64,000 bases of DNA, taken from assembly GCA_048939765.1 (NCBI GenBank), contig JBHLPF010000016.1:30-64029 (forward strand), read 5' to 3'. The position numbers and the translations under genes were made by a program. Below, piece after piece: positions 1 through 17,834 of this stretch. The DNA is from Promethearchaeota archaeon (GTDB lineage: Archaea; Asgardarchaeota; Thorarchaeia; Thorarchaeales; Thorarchaeaceae). The notes below the pieces were generated by a model. The model had not been told where the DNA came from. It worked only from the letters and a program-made list of their open reading frames with translations, and made no database searches. How positions within the stretch are numbered: position 1 is the first letter of the stretch; each line of letters starts with the position of its first letter.

Positions 1-1275
1 GATTACTAGTTGTTCTGGGGTTGTAGCATTAAACATTGAAGTGTATCGGCTACGCAAATACTGGACAATCATTTCCCGATCATAGGTATGAGCTTCAGAG
101 TTGGTGCTATCTTGCAGGACTGAAGCTAGACCAGAATCGGCTTCCCAATCATATTCAGTGAGAGAATATGTCCAATCGAAATGAGGGTTTATTCGTTTAA
201 ACTCAGAGACTATGTATTCGCAGTCGAGGCTTGTGCGGAAGTCATAATCAGTGGGGTCCAGGTCTATAGTAAGTATTTCGAGTTTTGCTTCTTTGAACCT
301 GGAAATACTCTGATGGCCGGTTCCACGGAGCGGCAAATAGAGGTAGGAAGGCAGAAACGTGCATTCGACCGCCTTAGCGATATACTTGACCAGGTCTTGG
401 GTGAGGGCCTCTTCTGGATTGGTTCTATCTTCATATGTCCAAATTGGCGGAACAGTTTCCTCAGTCACACTGTTCTCAGTAGGTGCCCCACCTAGAGGAG
501 GACCAGTGTAATAAGTTGGACCCGCTGAGAGATCCAGCCATAGTATCCGAGACTGCTTCCCACCTCCAGCGATTTGATAGGTCGATTGCCAAGGCATGGA
601 GACGGAGGTGTAGCCGTTAAGCTCAGCATCTAGTTCATTCTCTGACGCATTATAGTAATAGGGATGATGTCCAGTGGGATCGAATGAATAGGTGTCAATA
701 ATGACCAAAGTGGGTGTAGGATCGGAAGTGATATTCTCGGCGATATAGGCTTCGATAAGACCTGAGGGGGCGTAGTAGGCTCTAGGGTAGTCCAGATTGA
801 TAAACCAAGGCGAGCAATCTTCCCTTGAGTTTTCATAGAGATAAGACCGATAGGCTTGGACATGACTGAGGTCAAGATATGATATGTGATATGACAATGA
901 GAAATTCAAATCGTAGCTCACTCGATCTAATTGCACATATTGTTTTATGTCGATTGGCGCATACCATTGCGGGAGAGCATTAACAAGTGATTCCTCAGAG
1001 ATTCTTGTTTCATCGATACCTAAGAATACTATATTGATGTCATAATTCATGTGTTCAGGGAGGACTGGCACAGTGAAAGAATCCTGAGCTGCATCAAGGT
1101 TTCTATATTCTGCTGGTGCAATCGAATCCGATGGCTTGATGCTAGTAGGTGAACTACTTTGAGCTTCGGATGTAAGGACAGCAAATCCGTTCGTAAGCAG
1201 AAGGGCAGTGACAACTATGCTTAGGATGATCTTGCTCCAATCTCGAGCTCTTTGGTTTGGAAGTTCCATAGACAT
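1..1275 (-). CDS. secreted or membrane-anchored protein of unknown function (C-terminal part lies left of the window)
   Basis: The minus-strand frame is open from nt 1 up to in-frame ATGs at 1269/1275 (others at 1341, 1347, 1392). My translation starts MSMELPNQRARDWSKIILSIVVTALLLTNGFAVLTSEAQS, a basic n-region plus hydrophobic helix. It is absent from the ORF track because its stop is outside the window. No family recognised. Confidence 0.6.
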   Translation of the reverse strand, partial: MSMELPNQRARDWSKIILSIVVTALLLTNGFAVLTSEAQSSSPTSIKPSDSIAPAEYRNLDAAQDSFTVPVLPEHMNYDINIVFLGIDETRISEESLVNALPQWYAPIDIKQYVQLDRVSYDLNFSLSYHISYLDLSHVQAYRSYLYENSREDCSPWFINLDYPRAYYAPSGLIEAYIAENITSDPTPTLVIIDTYSFDPTGHHPYYYNASENELDAELNGYTSVSMPWQSTYQIAGGGKQSRILWLDLSAGPTYYTGPPLGGAPTENSVTEETVPPIWTYEDRTNPEEALTQDLVKYIAKAVECTFLPSYLYLPLRGTGHQSISRFKEAKLEILTIDLDPTDYDFRTSLDCEYIVSEFKRINPHFDWTYSLTEYDWEADSGLASVLQDSTNSEAHTYDREMIVQYLRSRYTSMFNATTPEQLVI

Positions 1276-1427
1276 AATGATCACGTGAACTATGGAATAC
1301 TTGAATATCAAAACTCGTAAACTCCCTGGTTGGTTTTTCATATTCATGTTTGATTGAATTTCCCAAAACCCGACCGCACTGTTTGTTTTCATGCAGACTC
1401 AAAGAGAGAGAAAGGATAGAAGGAGCG

Positions 1428-1455
1428 GGACGGGCGCACCCTTGCGGGGCCGTCC
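1428..1455 (-). promoter_or_regulatory. GC-rich 3'-UTR hairpin: candidate SECIS element and/or operon terminator
   Basis: mRNA sense is GGACGG-C-CCC-GCAA-GGG-UGCGC-CCGUCC: a 6-bp lower stem, an asymmetric internal loop, a 3 G-C pair upper stem and a 4-nt loop. It lies 30 nt after the vhuU stop and is followed by a pyrimidine-rich tract. Confidence 0.4.
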
Positions 1456-1485
1456 AACCCAGTCCAAGTCTTTACGACCGAGTCT

Positions 1486-1650
1486 TCATCCGCCGCCAGT
1501 CACGAGCTCCTTCCTGACTATCTCGCGACACTCCCCATCATCGTCTTCCTCAACGACGACGAAATGAGCGCCGCATGATAGTCAGCAGTCGTAGCACCGC
1601 ACAACCATCTCTACGAGGTTGAGCAGTCCTTCCGGTATTTCTTCCGTCAT
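1486..1650 (-). CDS. vhuU: VhuU-like mini-subunit: selenocysteine-containing C-terminal segment of the [NiFe(Se)] hydrogenase large subunit (TGA at 1584..1582 read as Sec)
   Basis: Manual translation from the ATG 11 nt after the vhuA stop gives MTEEIPEGLLNLVEMVVRCYDC-U-LSCGAHFVVVEEDDDGECREIVRKELVTGGG*. This matches the C-terminal Ni-ligand motif RxYD[PC][C/U]xxCxxH, which the upstream 438-aa subunit lacks. The track misses it because of the in-frame TGA. Confidence 0.8.
1514..1585 (-). promoter_or_regulatory. coding-region RNA structure around the Sec codon (9-bp perfect inverted repeat plus inner 8-bp hairpin)
   Basis: Plus-strand CTGACTATC (1514..1522) and GATAGTCAG (1577..1585) are exact reverse complements, and the 5' arm in the mRNA includes the UGA. 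An inner stem pairs 1555..1562 with 1538..1545. Confidence 0.35.
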
Positions 1651-1661
1651 GTTTTACACCA

Positions 1662-2978
1662 TTATCTCTTCACCATAGGCTCTGGAAGCTTCAAGCTCTC
1701 GTGAGCCTTGTCTTCGAAAATCTGCTTAGCTGCGACCATGAGAGACTTCTCTATGCCCGCAATGTTGTTGTTAGTGGCGACGACGAGGTTCGCCTTGGTG
1801 AGCATCCCCTCGTCGTCTGAGATGTAGTTGTGCAGGAGAATGCCCCGAGGTGCTTCCACGATTCCCACGCCATCTCCCGCCTTGGGTTCTACATCGGAGA
1901 GTTTTACATCTGTGCTAACAATGTCAGGATCTTGGAGTAGGGTCGCTATCCATTCGAATGCCTGTACCAACTCAATGATTCGTGCATAGTGATATGCAAA
2001 GGTGTGGTGTGAAGGTCTACCCACCAGTTCACGCATCTCTTTGAGCGCCGCATCTGCCAGAGGAGTTGCCATCTTCTCATTGACATTGCAACGGGCCAGG
2101 GTGTTTGCACGCCATATGCCATCGGGATATCCTGCTGGCTTGTAGTATATATGAGTTGCATAGCTGTGTTTAGCTACATGTTCACCGTAGTATTTCGTAT
2201 AGTCTTTTGGTTCGAAGTCCGCGACTATTTTGCCACCCGGCTCTTGCACTCGCACAGTACCGTCATAGATGTCAAGTTCCCCTTTGTTTGAGAGACCTAT
2301 GTAGTAGGTTGGAACCACAGCGACCTTTGTTATCACATCAAGGTAGTCCGTCACCACCTTCTTTGCAAGGTCAACGGTATTCAGTGTTAGTTGCTGAATC
2401 TCTTCGAGCCGTCCGATGAAAAAGTCACGGTCCTCTTCCTTCATCGAAGTCAGCATTCCACCGGGAATTCCGGTCGTCGGATGTACCGCCTTCGCGCCGA
2501 TGGCTCTGATCAGCTCTTGACCGAACTCCATCAGTTTGATTGCTTGAACAGCCACATCAGGGAGGTCTCTCAACACAGCTGCAACATTTCTATCCGCAGG
2601 ATTTGCAAATGGCCCGTACACAAAGTCAGGAGCAGCAAGTGCGTAGAAGTGGATTGCATGTGATGAGAACTGCTTCGCCTCTATCATCAACCTGCGTAGT
2701 TTGATTGCAGCAGGAGGAGGTGTAATATCCCAAGCCGCCTCAACAGCCTTGATTGATGCAAGATGGTGAGGAATCGGGCAGATACCGCAAATCCTGGGAG
2801 CAATCCGTGGAGCCTCCTCCATGGGACGTCCTTCTAGGAATTTCTCAAAGAACCTTGTGCTATTCACGTTGAACTGTACATCTTTGACCTTGCCATCCTT
2901 GCCCAGTTTGAGTGTCAATGAGCCATGACCCTCGAGCCGAGTCACTGGATCAATTCGGATGGTCTTCTCTTCTGTCAT
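1662..2978 (-). CDS. vhuA: [NiFe] hydrogenase large subunit, MvhA/VhuA type (group 3c-like), lacking the C-terminal Ni-ligand motif
   Basis: 438 aa with N-terminal PVTRLEGHG and the RICGICPIPH (RxCGxCxxxH) motif. It ends ...KLPEPMVKR without DPCxxCxxH. ATGA overlap with vhuG. Confidence 0.9.
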   Translation of the reverse strand: MTEEKTIRIDPVTRLEGHGSLTLKLGKDGKVKDVQFNVNSTRFFEKFLEGRPMEEAPRIAPRICGICPIPHHLASIKAVEAAWDITPPPAAIKLRRLMIEAKQFSSHAIHFYALAAPDFVYGPFANPADRNVAAVLRDLPDVAVQAIKLMEFGQELIRAIGAKAVHPTTGIPGGMLTSMKEEDRDFFIGRLEEIQQLTLNTVDLAKKVVTDYLDVITKVAVVPTYYIGLSNKGELDIYDGTVRVQEPGGKIVADFEPKDYTKYYGEHVAKHSYATHIYYKPAGYPDGIWRANTLARCNVNEKMATPLADAALKEMRELVGRPSHHTFAYHYARIIELVQAFEWIATLLQDPDIVSTDVKLSDVEPKAGDGVGIVEAPRGILLHNYISDDEGMLTKANLVVATNNNIAGIEKSLMVAAKQIFEDKAHESLKLPEPMVKR

Positions 2979-3900: not shown

Positions 3901-4134
3901 TCAGACCTCCCTCAGTTTGAAGACGAGCTCATGATGCTCCTCTCCCGCGATCTCTATATTGCCCCATCGAAGCAAGCCAAGTAGGTTCCACATGAGCACC
4001 TTCTTGTCCATCTCTGTCTTCTCGCTGATTGTGCTGACACTTGCTGGGCCTTCCTTGAGTGATTCAAGTATGGACTTCCTCTGTTGCGTCACAACAGCAT
4101 AGTTCTGATCGAAGTACATTGTGAACTCTGTCAT
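3901..4134 (-). CDS. small winged-helix-like protein conserved in both hdr operons
   Basis: Start trimmed to the ATG at 4134, which forms an ATGA overlap with the mvhD stop and has GGGAGGT 8 nt upstream. The 77-aa product RKSILESLKEGPASVSTISEKTEMDKKVLMWNLLGLLRWGNIEIAGEE is clearly homologous to 14191..14556. Confidence 0.6.
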   Translation of the reverse strand: MTEFTMYFDQNYAVVTQQRKSILESLKEGPASVSTISEKTEMDKKVLMWNLLGLLRWGNIEIAGEEHHELVFKLREV

Positions 4135-4571
4135 ACCCATGACCTCCCTATTGGACCAACTTCTTTCACTTGTTCTATTAGCTTCGTCACTCCGTCTGCG
4201 AATACCTGCGCCTCGGAGGCACTTGCCCACTGAAGTCGGATTCGTCTTGGGTCAATGCCCGCCTGTTTGACTGCTTCAGCCATAATTGCCCATCTGGCTC
4301 TCATCTTCAAATTACCAGATGTATAGTGACAGTCTCCTGGATGGCATCCTGATACCAATACTCCATCTGCACCCTGATCAAGTGCACCAAGGATAAACTC
4401 GGTGTCAATCCTTCCAGTGCAGTTTACCCGGATGATACGTGCATTGGGTGGATATTGGATTCGGCTTGTACCAGCCAAGTCCGCTCCAGCATAACTACAC
4501 CAATTGCAGCAGAATGCTACAATCCTCGGTTCCCATTCATTACTAGTCTTGGTTTTGGATGCAGTGGCCAT
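4131..4571 (-). CDS. mvhD: MvhD/VhuD-type [2Fe-2S] electron-transfer subunit
   Basis: IVAFCCNWCSYAGADLAG ... VSGCHPGDCHY, the MvhD/FlpD signature. TAATG overlap with hdrA. Confidence 0.9.
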   Translation of the reverse strand: MATASKTKTSNEWEPRIVAFCCNWCSYAGADLAGTSRIQYPPNARIIRVNCTGRIDTEFILGALDQGADGVLVSGCHPGDCHYTSGNLKMRARWAIMAEAVKQAGIDPRRIRLQWASASEAQVFADGVTKLIEQVKEVGPIGRSWV

Positions 4572-6337
4572 TAGGCAGAACCTCCTTCAGGGTTCATAGG
4601 CGGACACAGAAACGCCTCAACCATTGCAAGAATTTGGTCATCAGTGGAGTGTAACATCATAATTGCAGAACTAGGACAAGCTGCTGCGCATGTGCCGCAT
4701 CCATGACACTTCGCCTCCGTCACGAATGCGATGGGCGGATCGTGTGACTCATCCATTGAGATCGCTCCGTATGGACAAGCGGTGACACATGTATGACAGG
4801 ATGAGCAAAGCTCCGGTGTGACACGTGATACAGTAGCCTCTATCTCTACATCCCCGCGAGCCATGAGTCCAACTGCTTTTGCGGCTGCGCCACTGGCGTC
4901 CGTTATTGCCTCAGAAGCGCTCTTTGCCGCTTGAGCTCCCCCTGCAATCATCACGCCAGCGGTGTGTGTGGTCAAGGGCGCAAGCTTGACATGCTCAGGA
5001 TTGAAGAATCCATCTGGACTTCTTGTGAGGCTGAAGACCTTGGAAACCTCGTCAACTCCATCAGGGGGCACCAATGCTGTGGCTAGGACTAACAGGTCTG
5101 GTTTCATTGCGAGGTCGTCGTCAGAGAAGACATCATGCCAATGCAGAGCCAGCTCTCCATCCGAAACCTGAGCTCGCGGCTTCTTCTCTGGCGGGTATTT
5201 GCTGTAGATGACGTGCTTGGCTCTGGCCTCTCTATGTATCTCTTCATGACCTCTTCCATATGTTCTGAGATCCTCATACAGAATGACTATTTCATCGGCA
5301 ATGTCCTTGAGTTCTCCTGCACTCTTTGCGATTGCTGTGCAACAGACCCTGGAGCAGTGTTCATGCCCCATCACACCAGCCTCACGAGAACCTACGCATC
5401 CAATGTACGCAATAGTTTTTGGTGGTTTTCCATTGCTTGGCCTCAAGACCTCTCCCTTGAGGCGCATTTCCTCCAGCTCAGCTAGTGTCACAATGTCCGG
5501 ATGGTCTCCGTAGGAATAGTAGTTGTACGGTTTGAATGGTTGAATCCCGGTGGCCACAATAATAGTGCCGACTCGATGTACCTTGTCCACATCATTTGTG
5601 GTCACTGTTATATCGAAGTTGCCAATATAGCCATCGAGGTCAGTCACAGTTGACTCCGTTAAGACTTCGATCCTGTCATGACCCTTTACCCTATTGATGA
5701 GCTGCTTCGTCAATGTATCACCCTGCTCACCTGTTGGATAGACACTAGCCAGCTTCGCCACTTGTCCTCCGAGGTTCTTCTCTCGTTCGACAAGAATGGC
5801 ATCAAAGCCTCGGTCTGCCACATCCAGAGCTGCACGCATCCCAGTGACGCCGCCTCCAACAACCAGAGCTTTCGGCTCTACTTTCACAGTCTTGACGGGC
5901 AGAGACTCAAGAAGCGCAGCACGTGCAACTGACATCCTGACAAGGTCCTTTGCCTTCTCTGTTGCTTCCTCAGGCTGTCGCATATGGCACCATGCCACGT
6001 GTTCTCTGAGGTTGACTTGATCAAACAAGTAGCGGTTAACATCCGCCTCTTCAACTACTCTCCGAAATGTCGGTTCATGCATCCGTGGACTACAGGAAGC
6101 GACAACCACACGGTTTAGATTATACTCCTTGATACTGTCCTTGATGAGCTGCTGTCCTGAGTCTGCACACATGAACATCGTCGACGTGGCGAACGCCACG
6201 TGAGGTAGACTCTCCGCGCTCTTGGCCACAGCCTCCACATCGACTGTACCTGCGATATTGTGCCCACACATGCAGACGAATACACCAATTCTTGGCACAT
6301 CGGCTGCAGCATCTGTTTTGATTTCTGCTTCAGTCAC
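4571..6337 (-). CDS. hdrA: heterodisulfide reductase subunit A (N-terminal Cys domain + FAD domain + C-terminal 2x[4Fe-4S])
   Basis: N-terminus RIGVFVCMCGHNIAGTVDVEAV...VVVASCSPRMHEPTFRR as in methanogen HdrA. Also GGGVTGMRAALD, CVGSRE...CSRVCC, and the C-terminal CSSCHTCVTACP / CHGCGTCAAACP. GTG start with GTGA overlap. Confidence 0.9.
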   Translation of the reverse strand: MTEAEIKTDAAADVPRIGVFVCMCGHNIAGTVDVEAVAKSAESLPHVAFATSTMFMCADSGQQLIKDSIKEYNLNRVVVASCSPRMHEPTFRRVVEEADVNRYLFDQVNLREHVAWCHMRQPEEATEKAKDLVRMSVARAALLESLPVKTVKVEPKALVVGGGVTGMRAALDVADRGFDAILVEREKNLGGQVAKLASVYPTGEQGDTLTKQLINRVKGHDRIEVLTESTVTDLDGYIGNFDITVTTNDVDKVHRVGTIIVATGIQPFKPYNYYSYGDHPDIVTLAELEEMRLKGEVLRPSNGKPPKTIAYIGCVGSREAGVMGHEHCSRVCCTAIAKSAGELKDIADEIVILYEDLRTYGRGHEEIHREARAKHVIYSKYPPEKKPRAQVSDGELALHWHDVFSDDDLAMKPDLLVLATALVPPDGVDEVSKVFSLTRSPDGFFNPEHVKLAPLTTHTAGVMIAGGAQAAKSASEAITDASGAAAKAVGLMARGDVEIEATVSRVTPELCSSCHTCVTACPYGAISMDESHDPPIAFVTEAKCHGCGTCAAACPSSAIMMLHSTDDQILAMVEAFLCPPMNPEGGSA

Positions 6338-9075: not shown

Positions 9076-9983
9076 TTTGCCTCCTGCTCGCGGCGGATGA
9101 CCTTAGACTCTATTCTATGAGCGAATTCGAGTAGGACATCAGGACTAATCTTGTTCAGGGGTAAGCCAAGGGTTTCTTGATCGATTCCCATGGCAGCTCC
9201 CATGAATTGGGGCAATGTGAGTACTGGAATTCGATCCCTTGGTTCACCACCTTCGCCAAACTGAACCTGTGTCAGCTGAATATTACAGAATACACACGCG
9301 GTCAGTATTCCTTTGGCTCCTGCGGCCTTGACGTTTGTAATCTTCTCAGAGCCAATGGCAGTGGCTAATTCCTCATCCATGGCGAGCATTGGGCCTCCAC
9401 AGCACCGGACCTTCCCTGCGTAGTCAACAGCTTGAGCACCACAGGCTTCAATGATATCATCGATAGACCTTGGCACCTCGGGATCGTCTACTTGAACTAT
9501 TTCAGCCGGACGGGTCACGTGGCAACCATAGTGTGCAGCGAGAACTACTCCGTTATACGGCTGAACTACTGCTCTTCTAATCGCATCGTAGCCCACCTCA
9601 TCTCGAAGGATTTGCAGAAGGTGCTTCACCTCAACTTTGCCGGTGTATTCTAGGTCTTCCTCGGCCAGAATTTCGTTGACTGTGGCCTTTAGTTCAGGCT
9701 CATTGTCCAGCATGTGTTTCACATGTTTCAGGGAACCGGAACATGCTCCACAGATTGCAATGATATCTTTCCCGAACCGCTCTGCAATTGCCAGAAGACG
9801 CCCACTCATAGCTGCGAAAGCTTCCCGACTCAGTGATTCAACATATTGAGCCCCGCAGCAATTAACATCCTTCATGTGGTGAGCAGTTACACCAAGGTGC
9901 TTTAGGACCGCCATAGTGGCTGCTTCGTAGGCAGGAAGCCTGACTGGTGTAGTGCAACCAGTGTAAACAAAATAGTCTGTCAA
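9069..9983 (-). CDS. hdrB: heterodisulfide reductase subunit B (two CCG domains)
   Basis: DVNCCGAQ...CGACSGS and VRCCGGP...CVFCNIQ. TTG start with TTGA overlap and a GGAGGTGA SD. Confidence 0.9.
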   Translation of the reverse strand: MTDYFVYTGCTTPVRLPAYEAATMAVLKHLGVTAHHMKDVNCCGAQYVESLSREAFAAMSGRLLAIAERFGKDIIAICGACSGSLKHVKHMLDNEPELKATVNEILAEEDLEYTGKVEVKHLLQILRDEVGYDAIRRAVVQPYNGVVLAAHYGCHVTRPAEIVQVDDPEVPRSIDDIIEACGAQAVDYAGKVRCCGGPMLAMDEELATAIGSEKITNVKAAGAKGILTACVFCNIQLTQVQFGEGGEPRDRIPVLTLPQFMGAAMGIDQETLGLPLNKISPDVLLEFAHRIESKVIRREQEAKW

Positions 9984-10804: not shown

Positions 10805-13800
10805 TCACGGGCCCACTTCAGAGTAAAGATTTCTTGAAGCAGCTTCAATCATAGGCATAAGTTGACTTGTCTTGTAGTGCTTCATGTCGATTGCATTCTG
10901 CGGGCAGGCCGCGCTACAAGTGCCGCATCCTTGACATGCCTCTCGCGCAATCAACATAGCATCGTCCTCAAGCCGAGGTGCTCCATAGGGACAGACTTCA
11001 GCACATAATTCACATTTGATGCATTTGTTGGTGTCAATCTCTGCGTAGATGGGTTCTATTTTGAATTCTCCAGGCCCCATCAAAGCTTGCGCCTTCGCGG
11101 CGGCTGCTTCACCCATTGAAACTGCTTTGGCGATGTCCATTGGACCAAGGCAAGCGCCAGCGACAAACACACCATCCTGGAACGACTCTACTGGCCTTAG
11201 TTTGGGATGTGCGCAAAGGAAGTACCCATAGTGGTCAGTGGTCATCTTCAGCATACGCGCCATATCGGGATTCTCAGGCTGTGGATGTAATGCTGTCGCC
11301 AAGACAACTAAGTCATATGTGAGCCCAATATTCATTCCAGTATACAGGTCTTCAGCATATACCTGGATCTTGTCCTCTATCGGGTTATGCTCCAATTCAG
11401 AAGCCCTCCCTTTCACGATGTTGACACCCATCTCACGTGCTCTCTGATAGAGCTCCTCGTATCCGATACCATGCGTTCGAATATCCATCGTGTATATCGT
11501 AACATCAGTTTCTGGATACTTCTCCTTGATTTGAGTTGCTTGCTTCAGAGAGTTTTCACAGCCAACATAGCAGCAGTAGTCTCTATCGAACCTTGCATCA
11601 CGAGACCCTACGCATTGGAGGAATGCAATGCTAGATGGGGTTTTTCCGTCAGAAGGTCGTTTTATCTTACCATGAGTTGGCCCAGCAGCATTTGTCAATC
11701 GTTCGAACTGTGCATTTGTGATGATATGGGGTAGAATTCCGTACCCGTACTCACGAGTGTCCACTGGTTCGTATGAACGTGAACCTGTGGTAACGATGAT
11801 GGTTCCTACATCTCGGTTCAGAATCTGGTCTGTCATTTTGTGGTCTATAGCATTCGCCTTGCATGCGTCGACACATTGGTTACATTCGCAACATACTGCA
11901 CAACTGATACATCGTTCAGCTTCAGCTAGTGCGCTCTTCTCATTGAATCCAAGTTCGACTTCAGCAAAGCTATTCTTTCGCTTCCCTGTGCTCAATACAG
12001 GCATGACAACTCTGGGAGAACTCCGGATCCCATCCTTGAGGATGAGATCCTTAGGCACAGGAGATGGTTCTTCTCCTCTTCCTAGCGCAAGGTCTTCGCC
12101 AGTTAGGAACCTATCAATTGAGATGGCCGCCTCCTTGCCTGCTCCTACAGCTTCAACGACAGTGGCAGGACCCGTGACCACATCGCCCCCCGCAAAAACG
12201 CCCTTCTTGCTTGTCTGATATGTAACCTCGTCGACAACGACTGTGCCCCACTTAGTAAGCTCTAGGCCCTTGAGTGGACCTTTCGGATCGACTAGCTGAC
12301 CAATCGCAATTATGATGTCATCAACCTTCATATCATACTCCGAATCTGGTATTGGAATGGGACGCCTCCGACCTGATGCATCCGGTGCACCGAGACGCAT
12401 CTGAACACATCGGATTCCATTCACTTTCTCGTCAGTCTCGAGTATCTCCACAGGCGATGATAGAATCTTTATTTTGATTCCCTCTCGTTCAGCCTCATCT
12501 ATTTCACTGCGGATGGCAGGCATCTCATCCCTTGACCGACGATAGACAATTGTGACTCGATTTGCACCCAGGCGCTTTGCACTTCTAGCTGCATCAATCG
12601 CGGCATTCCCGCCACCAATCACAACCACATCTTCACCGAGCGTGACCTTTCTTCCTTGATTGAATCGCTCCAAGAAGTCAAGGGCATGATGAACACCTTT
12701 TGCGTCTTCTCCATTCACTTTTAGCTTACTACTCAACGATGCACCAGTTGCCAGAAAGACCGCTTTGTAACCGTCCTTCTTTAGGTCAGAAAGAGATTCG
12801 ACATTCACTCCTGTCTTCATCTCAACACCCAACGATTCGACTGCTGCGATTTCTTCCCCAAGAATTTCTCTTGGAAGACGGTACTCTGGTATTGCATATC
12901 GCAACAAGCCCCCTGCTTCAGGCTTTGCCTCAAAGACTGTCACTGGATAGCCCAATTTGATAAGATCGTAGGCACATGCAATCCCAGCTGGTCCTGAGCC
13001 AACTATTGCCACTTTCTTTTTCTTGGTTGGCTTGATTCGTGCAAATGGGTCTTCACCTTTCTCGCGTGCGTTGTCAGCCAAGAAACGATGGAGATTCCTA
13101 ATGGACAATGGCTCGTCGATTGATCCCCGCTCGCATCTCTCTTCGCAAAGACTTGTGCAAACCCTACCTAGCGAACCAGGGAATGGATTCGACTCCCGAA
13201 AGATCTCGAGCGCCTTGTCAAAGTTCTTCTCACGCATCAGTGTGATAAATGCATGGCTGTTGACTCCTGCAGGACAAGCTATTCGGCAAGCAGCTGTGCC
13301 TCTCTTATCAATGGTGAATGTGTTGGGCACTGCTTGTGGAAATGGTCGATAGATTGCCTTTCTATCAGCTAGACCATATTCGTATTCATTTGTCACACGA
13401 ACTGGGCATACTGGTTCACATTCACCGCAGCCATTGCAGGCATCAGCACTGACATAGCCTGCTTTCTTTCTAACTGAGAGTTTGAAATCACCCACATGAC
13501 CATCCACTTTCTCCAGCTCACTATACGCAAGGAGTTCGATCTCAGGATGTCGTTCTACTGATGCCATGATGGGGCCAAGTATGCAGATTGCGCAGTCATT
13601 TTGGGGAAACACCTTATCTAGAAGAGCCATCTGTCCGCCTATGGTTGGTCGCTTTTCTATGAGAGAAACCGGATAGCCAGAATTGGCCAGGTCCAGTGCC
13701 GCAGAAATTCCAGCAACGCCTCCGCCCACAACAGCTACTCGAGGTATGATCACTACGGATTCCATTTCCAGTGATTCAAGTTTTCGGGCACGTGCAATAG

Positions 13801-14194
13801 CCATCTCTATAAGGTGCTTTGCCTTTTCGGTCGCCTTTTCCTTTTCATCCATATGACACCATGAAACATGTTCCCGAATGTTCACCATCTCGAAGAGGAA
13901 TCGGTTTAGTCCAACCTCTTCGATCGTCTTTCGAAATACAGGCTCATGTGTCCGTGGCGTACATGATGCAACAATGACCCTATTGATATCATGTTCCTCT
14001 ATACTCTCTTTTATCGACTTAAGGCCGTCAGAAGAACAGGTGAACATGAGATCATTACTGAAGACTACGTTTGGAAGGTCCTTGACATGGTCACGCACAG
14101 CTTCCACGTCAACAGTCCCTGCAATGTTCAGGCCACAGTGACAAGTCCAGACTCCAATTCGGACATCGTCGCTTCTATCAACTGCCATCATCAT
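10805..14194 (-). CDS. full-length HdrA with inserted GltD/NfnB-like NAD(P)H module (1129 aa)
   Basis: N-terminal domain RIGVWTCHCGLNIAGTVDVEAV...ASCTPRTHEPVFRK; VVGGGVAGISAALD; insert FPGSLGRVCTSLCEERCERG, VAIVGSGPAGIACAYDL, GGLLRYAIPEYRLP; CVGSRD; C-terminal CIKCELCAEVCP / CQGCGTCSAACP. Confidence 0.85.
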   Translation of the reverse strand: MMMAVDRSDDVRIGVWTCHCGLNIAGTVDVEAVRDHVKDLPNVVFSNDLMFTCSSDGLKSIKESIEEHDINRVIVASCTPRTHEPVFRKTIEEVGLNRFLFEMVNIREHVSWCHMDEKEKATEKAKHLIEMAIARARKLESLEMESVVIIPRVAVVGGGVAGISAALDLANSGYPVSLIEKRPTIGGQMALLDKVFPQNDCAICILGPIMASVERHPEIELLAYSELEKVDGHVGDFKLSVRKKAGYVSADACNGCGECEPVCPVRVTNEYEYGLADRKAIYRPFPQAVPNTFTIDKRGTAACRIACPAGVNSHAFITLMREKNFDKALEIFRESNPFPGSLGRVCTSLCEERCERGSIDEPLSIRNLHRFLADNAREKGEDPFARIKPTKKKKVAIVGSGPAGIACAYDLIKLGYPVTVFEAKPEAGGLLRYAIPEYRLPREILGEEIAAVESLGVEMKTGVNVESLSDLKKDGYKAVFLATGASLSSKLKVNGEDAKGVHHALDFLERFNQGRKVTLGEDVVVIGGGNAAIDAARSAKRLGANRVTIVYRRSRDEMPAIRSEIDEAEREGIKIKILSSPVEILETDEKVNGIRCVQMRLGAPDASGRRRPIPIPDSEYDMKVDDIIIAIGQLVDPKGPLKGLELTKWGTVVVDEVTYQTSKKGVFAGGDVVTGPATVVEAVGAGKEAAISIDRFLTGEDLALGRGEEPSPVPKDLILKDGIRSSPRVVMPVLSTGKRKNSFAEVELGFNEKSALAEAERCISCAVCCECNQCVDACKANAIDHKMTDQILNRDVGTIIVTTGSRSYEPVDTREYGYGILPHIITNAQFERLTNAAGPTHGKIKRPSDGKTPSSIAFLQCVGSRDARFDRDYCCYVGCENSLKQATQIKEKYPETDVTIYTMDIRTHGIGYEELYQRAREMGVNIVKGRASELEHNPIEDKIQVYAEDLYTGMNIGLTYDLVVLATALHPQPENPDMARMLKMTTDHYGYFLCAHPKLRPVESFQDGVFVAGACLGPMDIAKAVSMGEAAAAKAQALMGPGEFKIEPIYAEIDTNKCIKCELCAEVCPYGAPRLEDDAMLIAREACQGCGTCSAACPQNAIDMKHYKTSQLMPMIEAASRNLYSEVGP

Positions 14195-14556
14195 TCATCC
14201 CCTTTGGTTCCCATTAGGCTCCTAGCGTACAGGTACTCCCGTTTCTCTTCACCCACAATTTCGACCTCGTTCCATTTCATCAATGCCAAGATATTCCAGA
14301 GGACTCTGTGTGGCTCAAGTTCCGTTGCCCTCGCGATTTGTGAGACCGTTGCGAAACCATCATCCAATTGCTTCAGAATATAGTGCCTTTCGTACTCCTC
14401 TTGGATGGTCTTGTCTACCAACTCCTTAAATCTCTCTTGAGTTAGTTCGCCATTTTGGACAAGAACATCACCCTTTCCTATGAGCCATCTGAGTCGTTCG
14501 TCTCCGAAAGCATCCACCATCGCCTCTATGCGACTACTATCTACTGTTTCTCTCAT
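14191..14556 (-). CDS. small winged-helix-like protein, paralog of 3901..4134 with an N-terminal extension
   Basis: RHYILKQLDDGFATVSQIARATELEPHRVLWNILALMKWNEVEIVGEE aligns with the operon-1 protein. ATGA overlap with the downstream hdrA. Confidence 0.6.
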   Translation of the reverse strand: MRETVDSSRIEAMVDAFGDERLRWLIGKGDVLVQNGELTQERFKELVDKTIQEEYERHYILKQLDDGFATVSQIARATELEPHRVLWNILALMKWNEVEIVGEEKREYLYARSLMGTKGDE

Positions 14557-14558
14557 AA

Positions 14559-15896
14559 TTAGGCACCTCCCTTAGCGAGAGTAATACTCGCACGCATAGC
14601 AGCCGCGCTTCCTGCCGCAACACTATCTGGTATGTCCTTTGGAGATTCCGCACACCCGCAAACGTAGATGCCGGGAACCTTTGTATCAACAGGTTTGATA
14701 GTTGCATTCTTAACGGCTAGGAATCCGTCTGCATCGAGCTCGAGTCCCATCTGAATTGAGAGGTCCTTCAATGTCTTAGGAGGCAGAATTCCAGGACAAA
14801 CTACGACCAGCTCGTGCTCGTTCTGCAAGAACTTACCAGTTTCAGTATCCTCCACACGTACAACGATATTCCCATTCTTTAGATTCTCTGAAACTTCGCC
14901 AACACGACCCCGTATGAACTTCACACCAAACCGTGTCTTCGCCATCTCTTTGAACTCTTCAAAGCCCTTGCCGAATGCCCGAAGGTCCGCATAGTAGAGC
15001 GAAACGTCCTTCACATGGTCGTGAGCTAGCTCAAATGCCATCACTCCATTCTTGATCGAATACATGCAGCATATGCGAGAACAGTTGGGAACGCCTTTCT
15101 CTACATCCCGGGCTCCAACGCACTGAATGAAGCCAATCGACTTTGGAATCTTTCCATCGCTCAATCGCATGAGATGCCCGCCACTTGGACCAGCGGCATT
15201 GATGATGCGTTCATACTCTAATGCGTGCATGACATTCTTGTATCTCCCATACCCAAGCCTAGGATACTTGGTGACATCATAGAGTTCGTAGCCTGTGGCA
15301 ACCACGATTGCTCCAACCGGAATCTCGACCTCTTCATCGACTGCATCAAGCATCACCGCTTCTCTTGCGCAAGACTTCTCACACATACCGCATCTGATGC
15401 AGTTCTTTTCGTCAATCGTGTACACCAGAGGGGTGCTCTGGGGAAATCCGATATAGATTGCTTTTCGAAATCCGAGGTCTTGATCGAACTCATTGGGTAC
15501 TTCGATTGGGCAATGTGGTACACAATCTCCGCAGCCGGAGCAAAGATCCTCGTTGACTTTTCGAGCTTTCCTCAATACTTTGACACGGAAATCTCCAGCC
15601 TTACCCGTTACCCCAGTGACTTCGGAGTAGGTCAGGAGCTCGATATTTGGATGTCTTGCAACCTCAGAAAGCCTTGGTGTGAGGATACATGCAGAACAGT
15701 CAAGCGTCGGAAAAGTCTTATCAAGCATTGCCATGACGCCCCCTATGGAGGGCGATTTCTCTACCAAAACAACTTGGTAATTCTGGTTAGCGATATCAAG
15801 GGCGGCCTGCATCCCCGCGACGCCACCTCCAATGACCATAGCGGTCTCAGAAGGAACCAGATGGTCATAGGTTACCTTGTCACCGGCAATCGTCAT
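14559..15896 (-). CDS. HdrA-like core flavoprotein (no N-terminal domain, no GltD insert, no C-terminal ferredoxin)
   Basis: 445 aa and very similar to the HdrA parts of 6334..9075: VIGGGVAGMQAALD, DKTFPTLDCSACILTPRLSEV, CSGCGDCVPHCP, CIRCGMCEKSC, CVGARD...CSRICC. Confidence 0.85.
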   Translation of the reverse strand: MTIAGDKVTYDHLVPSETAMVIGGGVAGMQAALDIANQNYQVVLVEKSPSIGGVMAMLDKTFPTLDCSACILTPRLSEVARHPNIELLTYSEVTGVTGKAGDFRVKVLRKARKVNEDLCSGCGDCVPHCPIEVPNEFDQDLGFRKAIYIGFPQSTPLVYTIDEKNCIRCGMCEKSCAREAVMLDAVDEEVEIPVGAIVVATGYELYDVTKYPRLGYGRYKNVMHALEYERIINAAGPSGGHLMRLSDGKIPKSIGFIQCVGARDVEKGVPNCSRICCMYSIKNGVMAFELAHDHVKDVSLYYADLRAFGKGFEEFKEMAKTRFGVKFIRGRVGEVSENLKNGNIVVRVEDTETGKFLQNEHELVVVCPGILPPKTLKDLSIQMGLELDADGFLAVKNATIKPVDTKVPGIYVCGCAESPKDIPDSVAAGSAAAMRASITLAKGGA

Positions 15897-16360
15897 GTCC
15901 CAGCACCTCCTGCTATTGCTGCTTCCTTCTGTCTAGCCTTCGGGATTGGTTTAGACAATGGACTGGGACCCAGTTTCTTGATGGTTTGGGTCATCTCAGT
16001 TATGCCTTCAGCCCATTGCTGGCCCTCCGATGCACTTGCCCATAGCAGCTTCAATCTATCAGGATGTAAGCCCATTAGGCTCAGCGCAGAGGATAGAGCT
16101 TCATAACGAACAAGTGTGCGATAATTGCCAGTAGAATAATGGCAATCTCCAATGTGGCATCCACTTATTATAACGCCGTCAGCTCCGTTCTTGAAGGCTT
16201 GGAGAACCATTAACGGATCCACACGGCCAGAACACATCAGGCGGATGACCTTCGCATTTGTGGGATACTGGATTCGAGAAATTCCGGCTAGGTCAGCCCC
16301 TCCGTACGAACACCAATTACAGGTGAAAGCCACAATATTCGGCTCAAAGCTCTTGCTCAT
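15893..16360 (-). CDS. mvhD: MvhD-type [2Fe-2S] subunit
   Basis: IVAFTCNWCSYGGADLAG...ISGCHIGDCHY, with a roughly 25-aa C-terminal tail. Confidence 0.85.
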   Translation of the reverse strand: MSKSFEPNIVAFTCNWCSYGGADLAGISRIQYPTNAKVIRLMCSGRVDPLMVLQAFKNGADGVIISGCHIGDCHYSTGNYRTLVRYEALSSALSLMGLHPDRLKLLWASASEGQQWAEGITEMTQTIKKLGPSPLSKPIPKARQKEAAIAGGAGT

Positions 16361-17271
16361 GTTGCTGCACCTCCTTTTCCAACTGCCCCTCCTTTGAGTT
16401 TAGCAACAAAAGAGGCAGTGCTAGCAGTATGCTGTTGAAGCCCGATTTCCTTGGGACTAAAACCAAAAGCCAGAGCGAGGATCTGGGGGTAATGGATGAC
16501 AGGGATATTCAGGTCTTCAATACCGTACTTATTCTTGATAATCCTCTGGCCCATATCATGCTGAATGTGACATAATGAACAGACAGTGACTAGTCCGTCG
16601 ACATCAGCTTCTTTTGCGTCCAATAGGCGTTCCTTGAGCACCTCATCCGCGAGGTCATCAGCTGATCCTCTAAGAAGCCCTCCGCAGCATCTGTGTCTAC
16701 CACTATAATTCTTGCTGGTTGCTCCAATACCTTCCAAGATTTCGTCTGCAAAGGTTGGCCGCTCAGAGTACTCGATGTTGAGGATTTCGTGTGGTTTAAG
16801 CATGTGACATCCATAGCGAAGTCCAAGCTCGACACCTTCGAAATCCTTCACCATCTTGCTTCTTATGACATCAATTCCAATCTCATGGTACAAGAAGTCG
16901 ATAAGATGAAACGCGTCAACAGTTCCATTGTATCTCAATCCAGCAGGCCGGAGGATGTTGTTAATCTGTTCATGAACTCCGGGGTATTTTTTGATGGTGT
17001 GATTGACTCTCTTATATGAGTGAAAACAACCGCTGCATGGTGTAAGCATGTTCAAACCCATCTCTTCTGCTTTGGCTAGATTACGGGATGCAAAGGCTAA
17101 GCTCGTTGTGAGGTCTAGCGACTGCATCCAAAATGGCGCACAACATGTCTCATTTGGGATATCAACTATCTCAACATCAAGATGCTCCAAGACCTTGCGA
17201 GTAGCCGCTTCATACCCAAGCAATGAGCGTCTAGAGGGAACAAGACAGCCCCAGGCAATAGCCATCTTCAT
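16357..17271 (-). CDS. hdrB: heterodisulfide reductase subunit B paralog
   Basis: NETCCAPF...CSGCFHS and RHRCCGGL...CSLCHIQ (two CCG domains). ATGA overlap with hdrC. Confidence 0.9.
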   Translation of the reverse strand: MKMAIAWGCLVPSRRSLLGYEAATRKVLEHLDVEIVDIPNETCCAPFWMQSLDLTTSLAFASRNLAKAEEMGLNMLTPCSGCFHSYKRVNHTIKKYPGVHEQINNILRPAGLRYNGTVDAFHLIDFLYHEIGIDVIRSKMVKDFEGVELGLRYGCHMLKPHEILNIEYSERPTFADEILEGIGATSKNYSGRHRCCGGLLRGSADDLADEVLKERLLDAKEADVDGLVTVCSLCHIQHDMGQRIIKNKYGIEDLNIPVIHYPQILALAFGFSPKEIGLQQHTASTASFVAKLKGGAVGKGGAAT

Positions 17272-17834
17272 AATGACTCATCCCTCCCTTTGTAGAGTGC
17301 GAGTATCTTATCGAAGCCAGAGGCTTGAATGATTTTAGCGATCTCATCCATCGCAGGCTCCTGCAATGGTGGTAGGTCAAGCTTCTCTCGCATCTTGTTC
17401 ACGGCAAAGGTCATTGGAACGACTCGACCGTGCTCAACAACAGTCTTCGCCATGTCCAAATAGCCCTCAGCGGCATGTCCTTCTCTCACTGCCATGTTCC
17501 GTAGTATCGTCACTATGTCGGTGAAGTTGACCTCTTGCACACAGCGCTCCTCACATGTAAAGCAAGCAGCACACATCCAGATATCATCACTAGAGAGCAC
17601 TAATTCCTTGAGTCCTAACAAGACATTCCCTAGCACTTTTCTGGGTCTATAATCAGTCACTGCTCCGACTGGACAACCTCCACTACAGGCTCCACATTTC
17701 AGGCATCTAAGCAGCCCTTCTCCCCCAACTTGACTTGCTACCTCATACTTGAAAGCCCGCGTTACATCCTCATCCCTAATTGGAGCATCGTCTCGTTGGG
17801 TCCTGACTTCATCAGTCTGTCCCATGTTCGTCAC
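17268..17834 (-). CDS. hdrC: heterodisulfide reductase subunit C paralog
   Basis: CLKCGACSGGCP and CAACFTCEERC. GTG start with an AAGGGGT SD; an alternative ATG lies 9 nt downstream. Confidence 0.85.
   Translation of the reverse strand: MTNMGQTDEVRTQRDDAPIRDEDVTRAFKYEVASQVGGEGLLRCLKCGACSGGCPVGAVTDYRPRKVLGNVLLGLKELVLSSDDIWMCAACFTCEERCVQEVNFTDIVTILRNMAVREGHAAEGYLDMAKTVVEHGRVVPMTFAVNKMREKLDLPPLQEPAMDEIAKIIQASGFDKILALYKGRDESL

Follow-up and report, generated by a model that had tools for sequence, protein, structure and literature searches.

The 64,000-nucleotide stretch of contig JBHLPF010000016.1 analysed here (the window) carries, towards its left edge and on the minus strand, a string of genes for a [NiFe] hydrogenase of the Vhu/Mvh type whose large subunit is encoded in two pieces (Table 1). 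The longer piece, vhuA, contains the N-terminal ligand motif RICGICPIPH and ends with a TAA stop codon short of the C-terminal metal-binding motif. Directly behind it, after a gap of 11 nt (tggtgtaaaac), an ATG at 1650 opens a vhuU-like mini-open reading frame (mini-ORF), which consists of MTEEIPEGLLNLVEMVVRCYDC, an in-frame TGA, LSCGAHFVVVEEDDDGECREIVRKELVTGGG and the final TGA at 1488..1486. With the inner TGA read as selenocysteine (Sec, U), the product is MTEEIPEGLLNLVEMVVRCYDC-U-LSCGAH followed by an extension of 25 residues past the His, and the UGA takes the place of the first Cys in the C-terminal CxxCxxH ligand motif. The end of the mini-ORF overlaps a SECIS (Sec insertion sequence) element. 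An initial annotation made from the letters of the window had pointed to this mini-gene, and its coordinates proved exact (the 438-aa ORF, the 11-nt gap, the ATG at 1650 and the TGA), as did the C-terminal extension that it described. It had also remarked that the ORF track cannot see the gene; indeed, the ORF list of the window holds nothing on the minus strand over 1486..1650.

Table 1. Features of the vhuU locus and its surroundings; positions are those of the window unless a related locus (L number) is named.
Feature	Position	Strand	Basis or remark
vhuU-like mini-ORF, 54 codons including Sec, plus stop	1486..1650	minus	translation, NCBIfam VhuU, PDB alignment, 69 related loci
In-frame UGA read as selenocysteine, at first Cys of DPCxxCxxH	1582..1584	minus	TGA in 70/70 loci; third-position variation downstream
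SECIS core and upper stem-loop, eukaryote-like (Asgard type I)	1451..1493	minus	model R1, covariation, published descriptions
Whole structured element	1419..1513	minus	RNAalifold, 56 sequences; three-way junction
vhuA/mvhA-like [NiFe] hydrogenase large subunit, 438 aa	1662..2978	minus	ORF list, Pfam, NCBIfam, PDB
vhuG/mvhG-like small subunit, 307 aa	2975..3898	minus	Pfam Oxidored_q6; NCBIfam VhuG E 1.2e-67
vhuD/mvhD-like subunit, 146 aa, Cys form	4131..4571	minus	Pfam FlpD E 8.6e-52; NCBIfam VhuD E 1.8e-37
hdrA-like flavoprotein, 588 aa	4571..6337	minus	NCBIfam HdrA2 E 1.8e-162; Pfam Fer4 and Pyr_redox_2
Gene after vhuU	1..1276, runs past left edge of window	minus	homologues L002 5626-8049, L001 6192-8612
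hdrC	17834..17268	minus	second Hdr-type string
hdrB	17271..16357	minus	second Hdr-type string
vhuD-like ORF, 155 aa	16360..15893	minus	second Hdr-type string
hdrA core, 445 aa	15896..14559	minus	second Hdr-type string
Unassigned ORF, 121 aa	14556..14191	minus	second Hdr-type string
HdrA2/GltD-type fusion, 1129 aa	14194..10805	minus	second Hdr-type string
Orphan copies of the vhuU-tail/SECIS module	L001 6007-6137, 8598-8679; L002 8028-8168, 9189-9285; L014 6302-6385, 6868-7002		
Further orphan copies of the module	L018 ~4064; L021 ~6742; L004 ~6342		

In NCBIfam, the top family of the 438-aa protein is VhuA (E 5.5e-145, 483 bits) and that of the mini-ORF, with U written as C, is VhuU ('F420-non-reducing hydrogenase selenoprotein subunit', E 1e-12); Pfam assigns NiFeSe_Hases to the longer protein (E 4.9e-30). 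When the VhuA and VhuU ORFs were concatenated and compared with solved structures, the top match was itself a split large subunit, the 418-residue chain 9sfi_g (E 1.6e-126). The unsplit MvhA chains 5odc_F and 9sw2_F ranked next and are collinear to the end of the concatenate (E 6e-110). In 5odc_F, ...MLIRAYDPCLSCATH is aligned opposite ...MVVRCYDC[U]LSCGAH, and the MvhA-type alignment sets LNYMEMLIRAYDPCLSCATH opposite LLNLVEMVVRCYDC[U]LSCGAH. Searched alone, the mini-ORF aligns with the 27-residue VhuU chain 9sfi_M (...LRAYDPXYSCAAHM) such that X, which is Sec, falls on the TGA. Thus, the alignments to 5odc_F and 9sfi_M place the TGA at the first C-terminal ligand Cys, the position of Sec in [NiFeSe] enzymes, where the initial annotation had put it, and the split VhuA/VhuU-type organisation that it had proposed is borne out by the top NCBIfam families and by the split chains of 9sfi.

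A close parallel is the VhuA/VhuU pair of Methanococcales (M. voltae, M. maripaludis; NF041785/NF041786; chains g and M of 9sfi), which shares the split large subunit, the mini-subunit with U-x-x-C-x-x-H and a C-terminal extension past the His, and a vhuD-vhuG-vhuA-vhuU type string adjoining hdrA. The motif is DPU in the Methanococcales VhuU but DCU in the window, and the window operon has both VhuD and HdrA in their Cys forms. The MvhA of Methanothermobacter/Methanothermococcus (PDB 5odc, 9sw2), also of group 3c, has DPCLSCATH opposite DC[U]LSCGAH of the window, but it is one polypeptide, with Cys for Sec and no SECIS.

To compare the locus with its relatives, the large subunit was scanned against one genome per GTDB species, which yielded 80 related loci, nearly all of them Asgard. 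The best three share 95-98% identity, under the titles Thorarchaeota or Hermodarchaeota; identity is 92% for Thorarchaeota SMTZ1-45, 91% for AB_25, and 55-64% for metagenome-assembled genomes (MAGs) of Freya-, Jord-, Hel- and Lokiarchaeia type. With 98% identity to Thorarchaeota-labelled MAGs, the window is assigned to a Thorarchaeia genome, in agreement with the Asgard organism suspected at the outset. A vhuU-like ORF is present in 69 of the 80 loci and, with the window included, the Sec codon is TGA in 70/70 and TGC or TGT in 0/70; the flanking Cys codons alternate between TGC and TGT across loci. This comparison of TGA with TGC/TGT, which the initial annotation had proposed, leaves next to no room for the idea that the TGA arose by an assembly or sequencing error, for which nothing speaks beyond the general error rate of metagenome assembly: the same codon recurs in 69 independent assemblies, and this explanation is refuted.

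The same loci bear on whether the gene is a decaying pseudogene, in which a stop and a frameshift broke the large subunit and the TGA is a further lesion. To a gene caller such a case would indeed look, as here, like a shortened large subunit with nothing annotated behind it. However, the break point and the TGA are identical in 70 loci over Thor-, Loki-, Hel-, Jord- and Freyarchaeia, extra frame-destroying changes are absent, the third-position pattern described below carries on past the TGA, and the split form has been solved experimentally (418-aa and 27-aa chains in 9sfi). Neither an uninterrupted large subunit in relatives nor decay of the locus, named together in the initial annotation as speaking for a pseudogene, was found, and a pseudogene is so improbable as to be effectively refuted. 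In addition, the reading-frame offset from vhuA to vhuU varies among loci, which argues for two cistrons instead of a frameshifted single gene.

Past the TGA, residues L, C, A and H are invariant among the 69 distinct sequences and their codons vary synonymously (TGC/TGT, CAT/CAC, GCN). Summed nucleotide diversity at codon positions 1/2/3 amounts to 2.80/0.53/7.35 in the part ahead of the TGA and shows the same pattern behind it (1.99/0.96/4.87). The weight on third positions beyond the TGA indicates that the frame is translated through it, and the downstream part is, as judged from these alignments, under purifying selection. The simplest alternative, that ribosomes stop at this UGA and release a 22-residue peptide, leaving the hydrogenase inactive or working without C-terminal ligands, can draw on the fact that TGA is an ordinary stop in the neighbourhood: it ends mvhG (2977..2975, overlapping the vhuA start as ATGA), a 913-aa hdrA-like gene (6336..6334) and hdrC (9982..9980), so there is no general codon reassignment. 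However, termination would not explain why L, C, A and H are kept as protein with synonymous variation in their codons, and a [NiFe] site, as is well established for this family, needs the C-terminal Cys/Sec pair in order to form. We regard termination at this codon as very improbable.

The decisive element, which the initial annotation lacked, is a eukaryote-like SECIS with the stop codon of the ORF inside its AUGA. The AUGA (1489..1486) includes the vhuU stop UGA, and A1485 comes next; a 9-bp stem joins 1484..1476 to 1464..1456 and carries an 11-nt loop (GUAAAGACUUG, 1475..1465) that starts with GUAAA; G1455 and then GA (1454..1453) follow on the 3' side. In the passages of Mariotti et al. 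2016 (PMC4989117) and Huang et al. 2024 (PMC11227280) on which we draw throughout, type I SECIS elements have AUGA before the stem, GA (or AA) after it, an upper stem of 7-15 bp, and an apical loop without a ministem that has an A-rich start and ends in G, and they lie at or just past the stop codon. Read directly, the window shows these features in 1489..1453. Searches with R1, a covariance model built from 42 orthologous SECIS elements, returned one significant match in the 64-kb window (56.4 bits, E 1.9e-14), at the end of vhuU, all others there staying below 11 bits, at the level of noise. Among the relatives, R1 matched 49 vhuU-adjacent sequences in Thorarchaeia-type loci. In an alignment of 49 Thorarchaeia-type sequences, 94% of the cells of the stem are paired, versus 11-53% with slid partners, and 7/9 pairs show compensatory changes on both sides. 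The vhuU stop codon is TGA in 68/70 loci and lies within AUGA in most of those.

The likeness to eukaryotic SECIS elements (RF00031) lies in the AUGA...GA core, the A-rich apical loop and the 3' untranslated region (3'-UTR) position, whereas the element in the window has a shorter upper stem, a core that overlaps the stop codon, and a lower helix whose 5' strand is coding sequence. The Rfam model of eukaryotic SECIS_1 hits the same place and strand with 16.3 bits (E 1.4), below its gathering score of 35, which is a hint and not evidence. By its sequence motif the element is of the AUGA...GA kink-turn type, in contrast to the SECIS of Methanococcales, in which two stems are split by a GAA_A internal bulge and the upper stem has three G/C pairs. 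No GAA_A bulge is evident by eye in 1400..1490, a region for which no dedicated model was used and in which Rfam gives none at gathering level. According to the passages of PMC4989117 covered, no SBP2 homologue is known in Asgard archaea.

The SECIS stem-loop is part of a wider fold. In an alignment of 56 sequences that takes in the 45 nt ahead of the stop and the 91 nt behind it, helix P1a pairs 1513..1507 (GAAGGAG, codons R-K-E) with 1425..1419 (CUCCUUC), and helix P1b pairs 1503..1494 (GUGACUGGCG, codons V-T-G-G) with 1436..1427, so that the 5' strand of both is formed by the last vhuU codons (RKE..VTGG). Inside the junction, next to the SECIS stem-loop, stands a hairpin, P3 (1450..1438, CCC-CGCAA-GGG). 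Over the wider structure 90.1% of cells are paired, versus 36-50% with slid partners; P1b has both-side changes in 7/10 pairs, and the P3 pair 95-107 is AU in 37 sequences and GC in 12. The minimum free energy (MFE) fold of the window's own sequence shows P1a and the SECIS stem, and for single-sequence folds of the 3' region the gain in stability over shuffles is not significant (z -1.8 and -0.7). Hence, the structural support comes from covariation and not from folding energy. Based on the alignment, RNA pairing probably constrains the conserved peptide RKELVTGGG no less than protein function does. A lower stem [U/C]GG_C[C/U][A/G] has been published for frhA genes (Huang et al. 2024, PMC11227280) and corresponds to the central P1b pairs, U1498-G1497-G1496 opposite C1434-C1433-C1432 in the window, where the two G-C pairs form and U1498/C1432 is mismatched; this part has therefore been reported before. 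The passages of PMC4989117 and PMC11227280 covered make no mention of P3 or P1a. An alternative lower stem, GGCG/CCGC, which competes with P3 and was proposed by RNAalifold on a narrow alignment, was superseded by the better-supported 10-bp helix and P3 once the alignment was widened.

A Cys form of the gene is rare. Among 5.8 billion protein clusters searched with the mini-ORF (U as C), a single protein came up, a 50-aa Thorarchaeota 'F420-nonreducing hydrogenase' (...VRCYDCCLSCSAH), and this single match shows why protein databases lack the Sec forms. The critical codon of its gene is TGT, a 438-aa split large subunit precedes the gene, and R1 finds no match at either locus that bears the Cys (TGT) homologue. 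Thus, TGA and SECIS occur as a pair that the Cys form has lost. This pairing bears on a further possibility, that the UGA is read through without Sec, such that near-cognate decoding or, when selenium is scarce, a mis-charged tRNA-Sec puts in Cys, Trp or some other residue. The conserved UGA-C(UA), by general knowledge a context of weak termination, would suit such decoding, as would the lack of visible Sec machinery in the window. However, a covarying SECIS accompanies the TGA forms and not the TGT form, the position is that of Sec in characterised [NiFeSe] enzymes, and Sec machinery is reported in 77% of Thorarchaeia genomes (PMC11227280). Decoding as Sec is favoured, and reading through without it appears improbable.

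Family models, structures, the TGA in 70/70 loci, codon diversity and the SECIS together put the vhuU mini-gene far beyond chance. The anatomy of the gene, the positional homology and conservation of its UGA, the translation downstream and the covarying SECIS are all seen directly in the comparisons above. We are therefore highly confident that this is a genuine selenoprotein gene, which encodes, in a Thorarchaeia archaeon, the VhuU-type subunit of an Hdr-associated [NiFeSe] hydrogenase of group 3c (Mvh/Vhu). Several points weigh against this conclusion. VhuA scores 483 bits against an equivalog cutoff of 800 and VhuU 47.7 bits (U as C) against 70, and every Vhu-family score in the operon lies below its NCBI equivalog cutoff; the VhuU and VhuA cutoffs probably reflect Methanococcales sequences. 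The canonical D-P-(C/U)-x-x-C-x-x-H is absent, since all 70 Asgard loci have Cys in place of Pro (D-C-U-L-S-C-G-A-H). The initial annotation had the mini-ORF supply the missing DPCxxCxxH; what stands of this is that U, C and H, the ligand residues, keep their register despite the change from Pro to Cys, and what does not is the motif itself, which is D-C-U-x-x-C-x-x-H without the Pro. Moreover, neither tRNA-Sec, EFSec/SelB, PSTK, SepSecS and SelD nor a maturation protease was found in the 64-kb window, which contains no tRNA genes of any kind, so that decoding capacity rests on the lineage.

The Cys codon before Sec (window 1585..1587) deserves mention in its own right. The resulting Cys-Sec dyad (DCU) is invariant in the 70 loci and the rare Cys form has DCC, while the solved homologues with an alignment listed (5 of 13 matched) all have DP(C/U). 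The dyad is, as we take it, reminiscent of the Cys-Sec pair of thioredoxin reductase, and it might protect or tune the Ni site by forming a selenenylsulfide.

A scheme for the expression of this gene can be sketched. The large subunit is encoded in two pieces, with the N-terminal Ni/Fe ligands on VhuA (438 aa) and the U-x-x-C and His on VhuU (54 codons). The UGA at 1584..1582 would be recoded to Sec by the SECIS beginning 93 nt downstream, which should be folded as a whole while the ribosome decodes UGA-1584 and could then recruit the Sec-specific elongation factor. By the time the ribosome reaches UGA-1488 it would have unwound P1a, P1b and the core, such that the second UGA terminates, a proposal that follows Mariotti et al. 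2016 (PMC4989117). VhuU would join VhuA, assembling with VhuG, VhuD and HdrA, and after Ni insertion its extension past the His would probably be cut by a maturation protease; we infer this cleavage from the 27-residue VhuU chain in 9sfi and from the general course of [NiFe] maturation.

Further observations concern the sequence around the Sec codon. The base after the UGA (window 1582..1579) is always C, and the next codon is CUA in 59/69 distinct sequences. UGA-C(UA) would favour recoding as a weak-termination context. CUA is also found in Lokiarchaeia-type loci, where no pairing partner exists, which speaks for codon context acting on recoding, not for an RNA helix. A hairpin at the Sec codon (CUGACUAUC with GAUAGUCAG), which came up through a spurious miRNA match, was rejected as a conserved element: its 3' strand varies uncompensated in Thorarchaeia and it has no counterpart in Lokiarchaeia-type loci. 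The window copy of vhuU has an acidic linker longer by 4 residues (EEDDDGEC), common to its closest relatives.

Gene starts and gene order vary among the relatives. Four loci have no ATG at the homologous vhuU start, with an Ile codon (L011, L027, L036) or a Val codon (L057) in its place; in L027 and L036 a Leu codon three codons upstream is a possible alternative start, and in L011 a stop codon lies shortly upstream. These copies may use alternative starts or coupled re-initiation after vhuA. In six Lokiarchaeia-type loci (L064, L067, L073, L074, L076, L077), vhuU with TGA and SECIS lies ~1.5 kb downstream of vhuA, and in L064 an Fe-S-protein-like ORF fills at least part of the gap. Loci L041-L049 (e.g. 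L048 of Thorarchaeota AB_25 and L044 of Zod_maxbin.0292) encode a paralogous large subunit, ~70% identical and with the same truncation (...LPDPMIK and stop), and no vhuU-like ORF was found on either strand within the 0.5-4 kb of flank available per locus. The genomes with these paralogues also hold a vhuU-bearing copy (L010 in AB_25, L016 in Zod_maxbin.0292), and the paralogues may share a single VhuU in trans or be non-functional.

Upstream of vhuA, the genes vhuG, vhuD and hdrA share one gene string with vhuA and vhuU, as expected of the partners of a VhuU-type subunit. The vhuD-like ORF has no in-frame TGA, and the hdrA-like gene stands immediately upstream of it; its flavoprotein is likely the electron-bifurcating partner of the hydrogenase. 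A second Hdr-type string occupies 10805..17834 on the minus strand (Table 1). It consists entirely of Cys forms and has no SECIS match, which leaves vhuU as the sole selenoprotein gene in the stretch, and a scan of TGA-joined ORF pairs in the window gave no convincing further candidate. Other genes of the window encode PEP carboxykinase, aldehyde:ferredoxin oxidoreductases, an frhB-like protein and mtd.

Downstream of vhuU, the homologues of the gene at the left edge of the window are ~806 aa long, with an N-terminal hydrophobic segment and a HEAGHALGLRHPHD zinc-protease motif, i.e. resembling secreted Zn-proteases. Several relatives carry, downstream of the real vhuU and on the same strand, extra copies of a module that comprises the last ~13 vhuU codons and the full SECIS fold (Table 1); none lies inside the window, which has the single functional copy. 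These orphan copies are 80-143 nt long and 76-88% identical to the reference copy, score mostly 37-59 bits with R1 (25-30 bits for two weaker ones), and have no vhuU body or UGA-containing ORF in front. Compensatory changes set their stems apart from the local vhuU SECIS, and one L001 copy is identical to the functional vhuU SECIS of L002. L001 and L002, whose large subunits are each 98% identical to that of the window, have orphan copies flanking an alpha/beta-hydrolase-like gene on the opposite strand, and the hydrolase and Zn-protease segments are swapped between the two (spacings 1160+2591 versus 2591+1161). In L001 the stop codon of the Zn-protease-like gene lies inside an orphan copy; the corresponding copy of the window would fall outside it. 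In L014 the copies flank two small opposite-strand ORFs, possibly, by appearance only, a toxin-antitoxin pair. Elements that integrate into the 3' ends of genes bring their own copy of that end, as at tRNA genes, and cassettes flanked by module copies in swapped order look like the outcome of recombination or integration at the vhuU 3' end. Nevertheless, that the ~95-140-nt module could be a preferred recombination or integration site, beyond its role as a recoding signal, is a speculative suggestion that we think rather unlikely to hold.

The finding is real and its interpretation supported, and genes of this kind were already catalogued for the lineage between 2016 and 2024. Sec-VhuU with a eukaryote-like SECIS was described for Lokiarchaeota by Mariotti et al. 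2016 (PMC4989117) and for Thorarchaeia in 2024. In the passages covered, published Asgard SECIS elements have AUGA, a stem of 9 bp and an 11-nt loop whose last base is G, with the AUGA of VhuU doubling as the stop codon (PMC4989117), and frhA/vhuU genes of Thorarchaeia typically have a loop that begins with G[U/G]AAA (Huang et al. 2024, PMC11227280). The latter study maps 227 Sec-using Asgard genomes systematically and is summarised in a 2026 review; 68% of these genomes have a VhuU-type selenoprotein (listed as FrhA/MvhA/VhuU; PMC11227280). Its supplement contains Thorarchaeia Sec-SelD sequences and an alignment with '...LLNLVEMVVRCYDCXLSCGAHLVV...KELVTGGG', labelled Thorarchaeia, which is the same family, DCU included. 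Both it and the 2026 review point to earlier reports of Sec machinery and eukaryote-like SECIS elements in Thorarchaeota and Jordarchaeia. Asgard VhuU as described in the passages of PMC4989117 and PMC11227280 covered, a ~50-aa protein with one Sec, directly after vhuA and with the AUGA core as stop, shows no substantive difference from the window. The initial annotation had described Sec decoding in Asgard archaea as reported only for the Lokiarchaeota type and had taken the locus as a marker of Sec use; the first is contradicted by Thorarchaeia, Sif/Borrarchaeales and Jordarchaeia, which are documented too, and the second loses its force in a lineage where the trait is expected, being present in 77.4% of sequenced Thorarchaeia (PMC11227280).

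In summary, the locus brings no new principle, as Sec-VhuU, the stop codon embedded in AUGA and the Thorarchaeia loop signature are all published. It is one more clean example of a eukaryote-like Asgard SECIS, and as such bears on the origin of the eukaryotic Sec system. For the biology of the organism, the consequence is that an essential part of the genome's main H2-activating enzyme escapes standard ORF calling; metabolic reconstructions should include VhuU and regard the Mvh/Vhu-Hdr module as complete and dependent on selenium.

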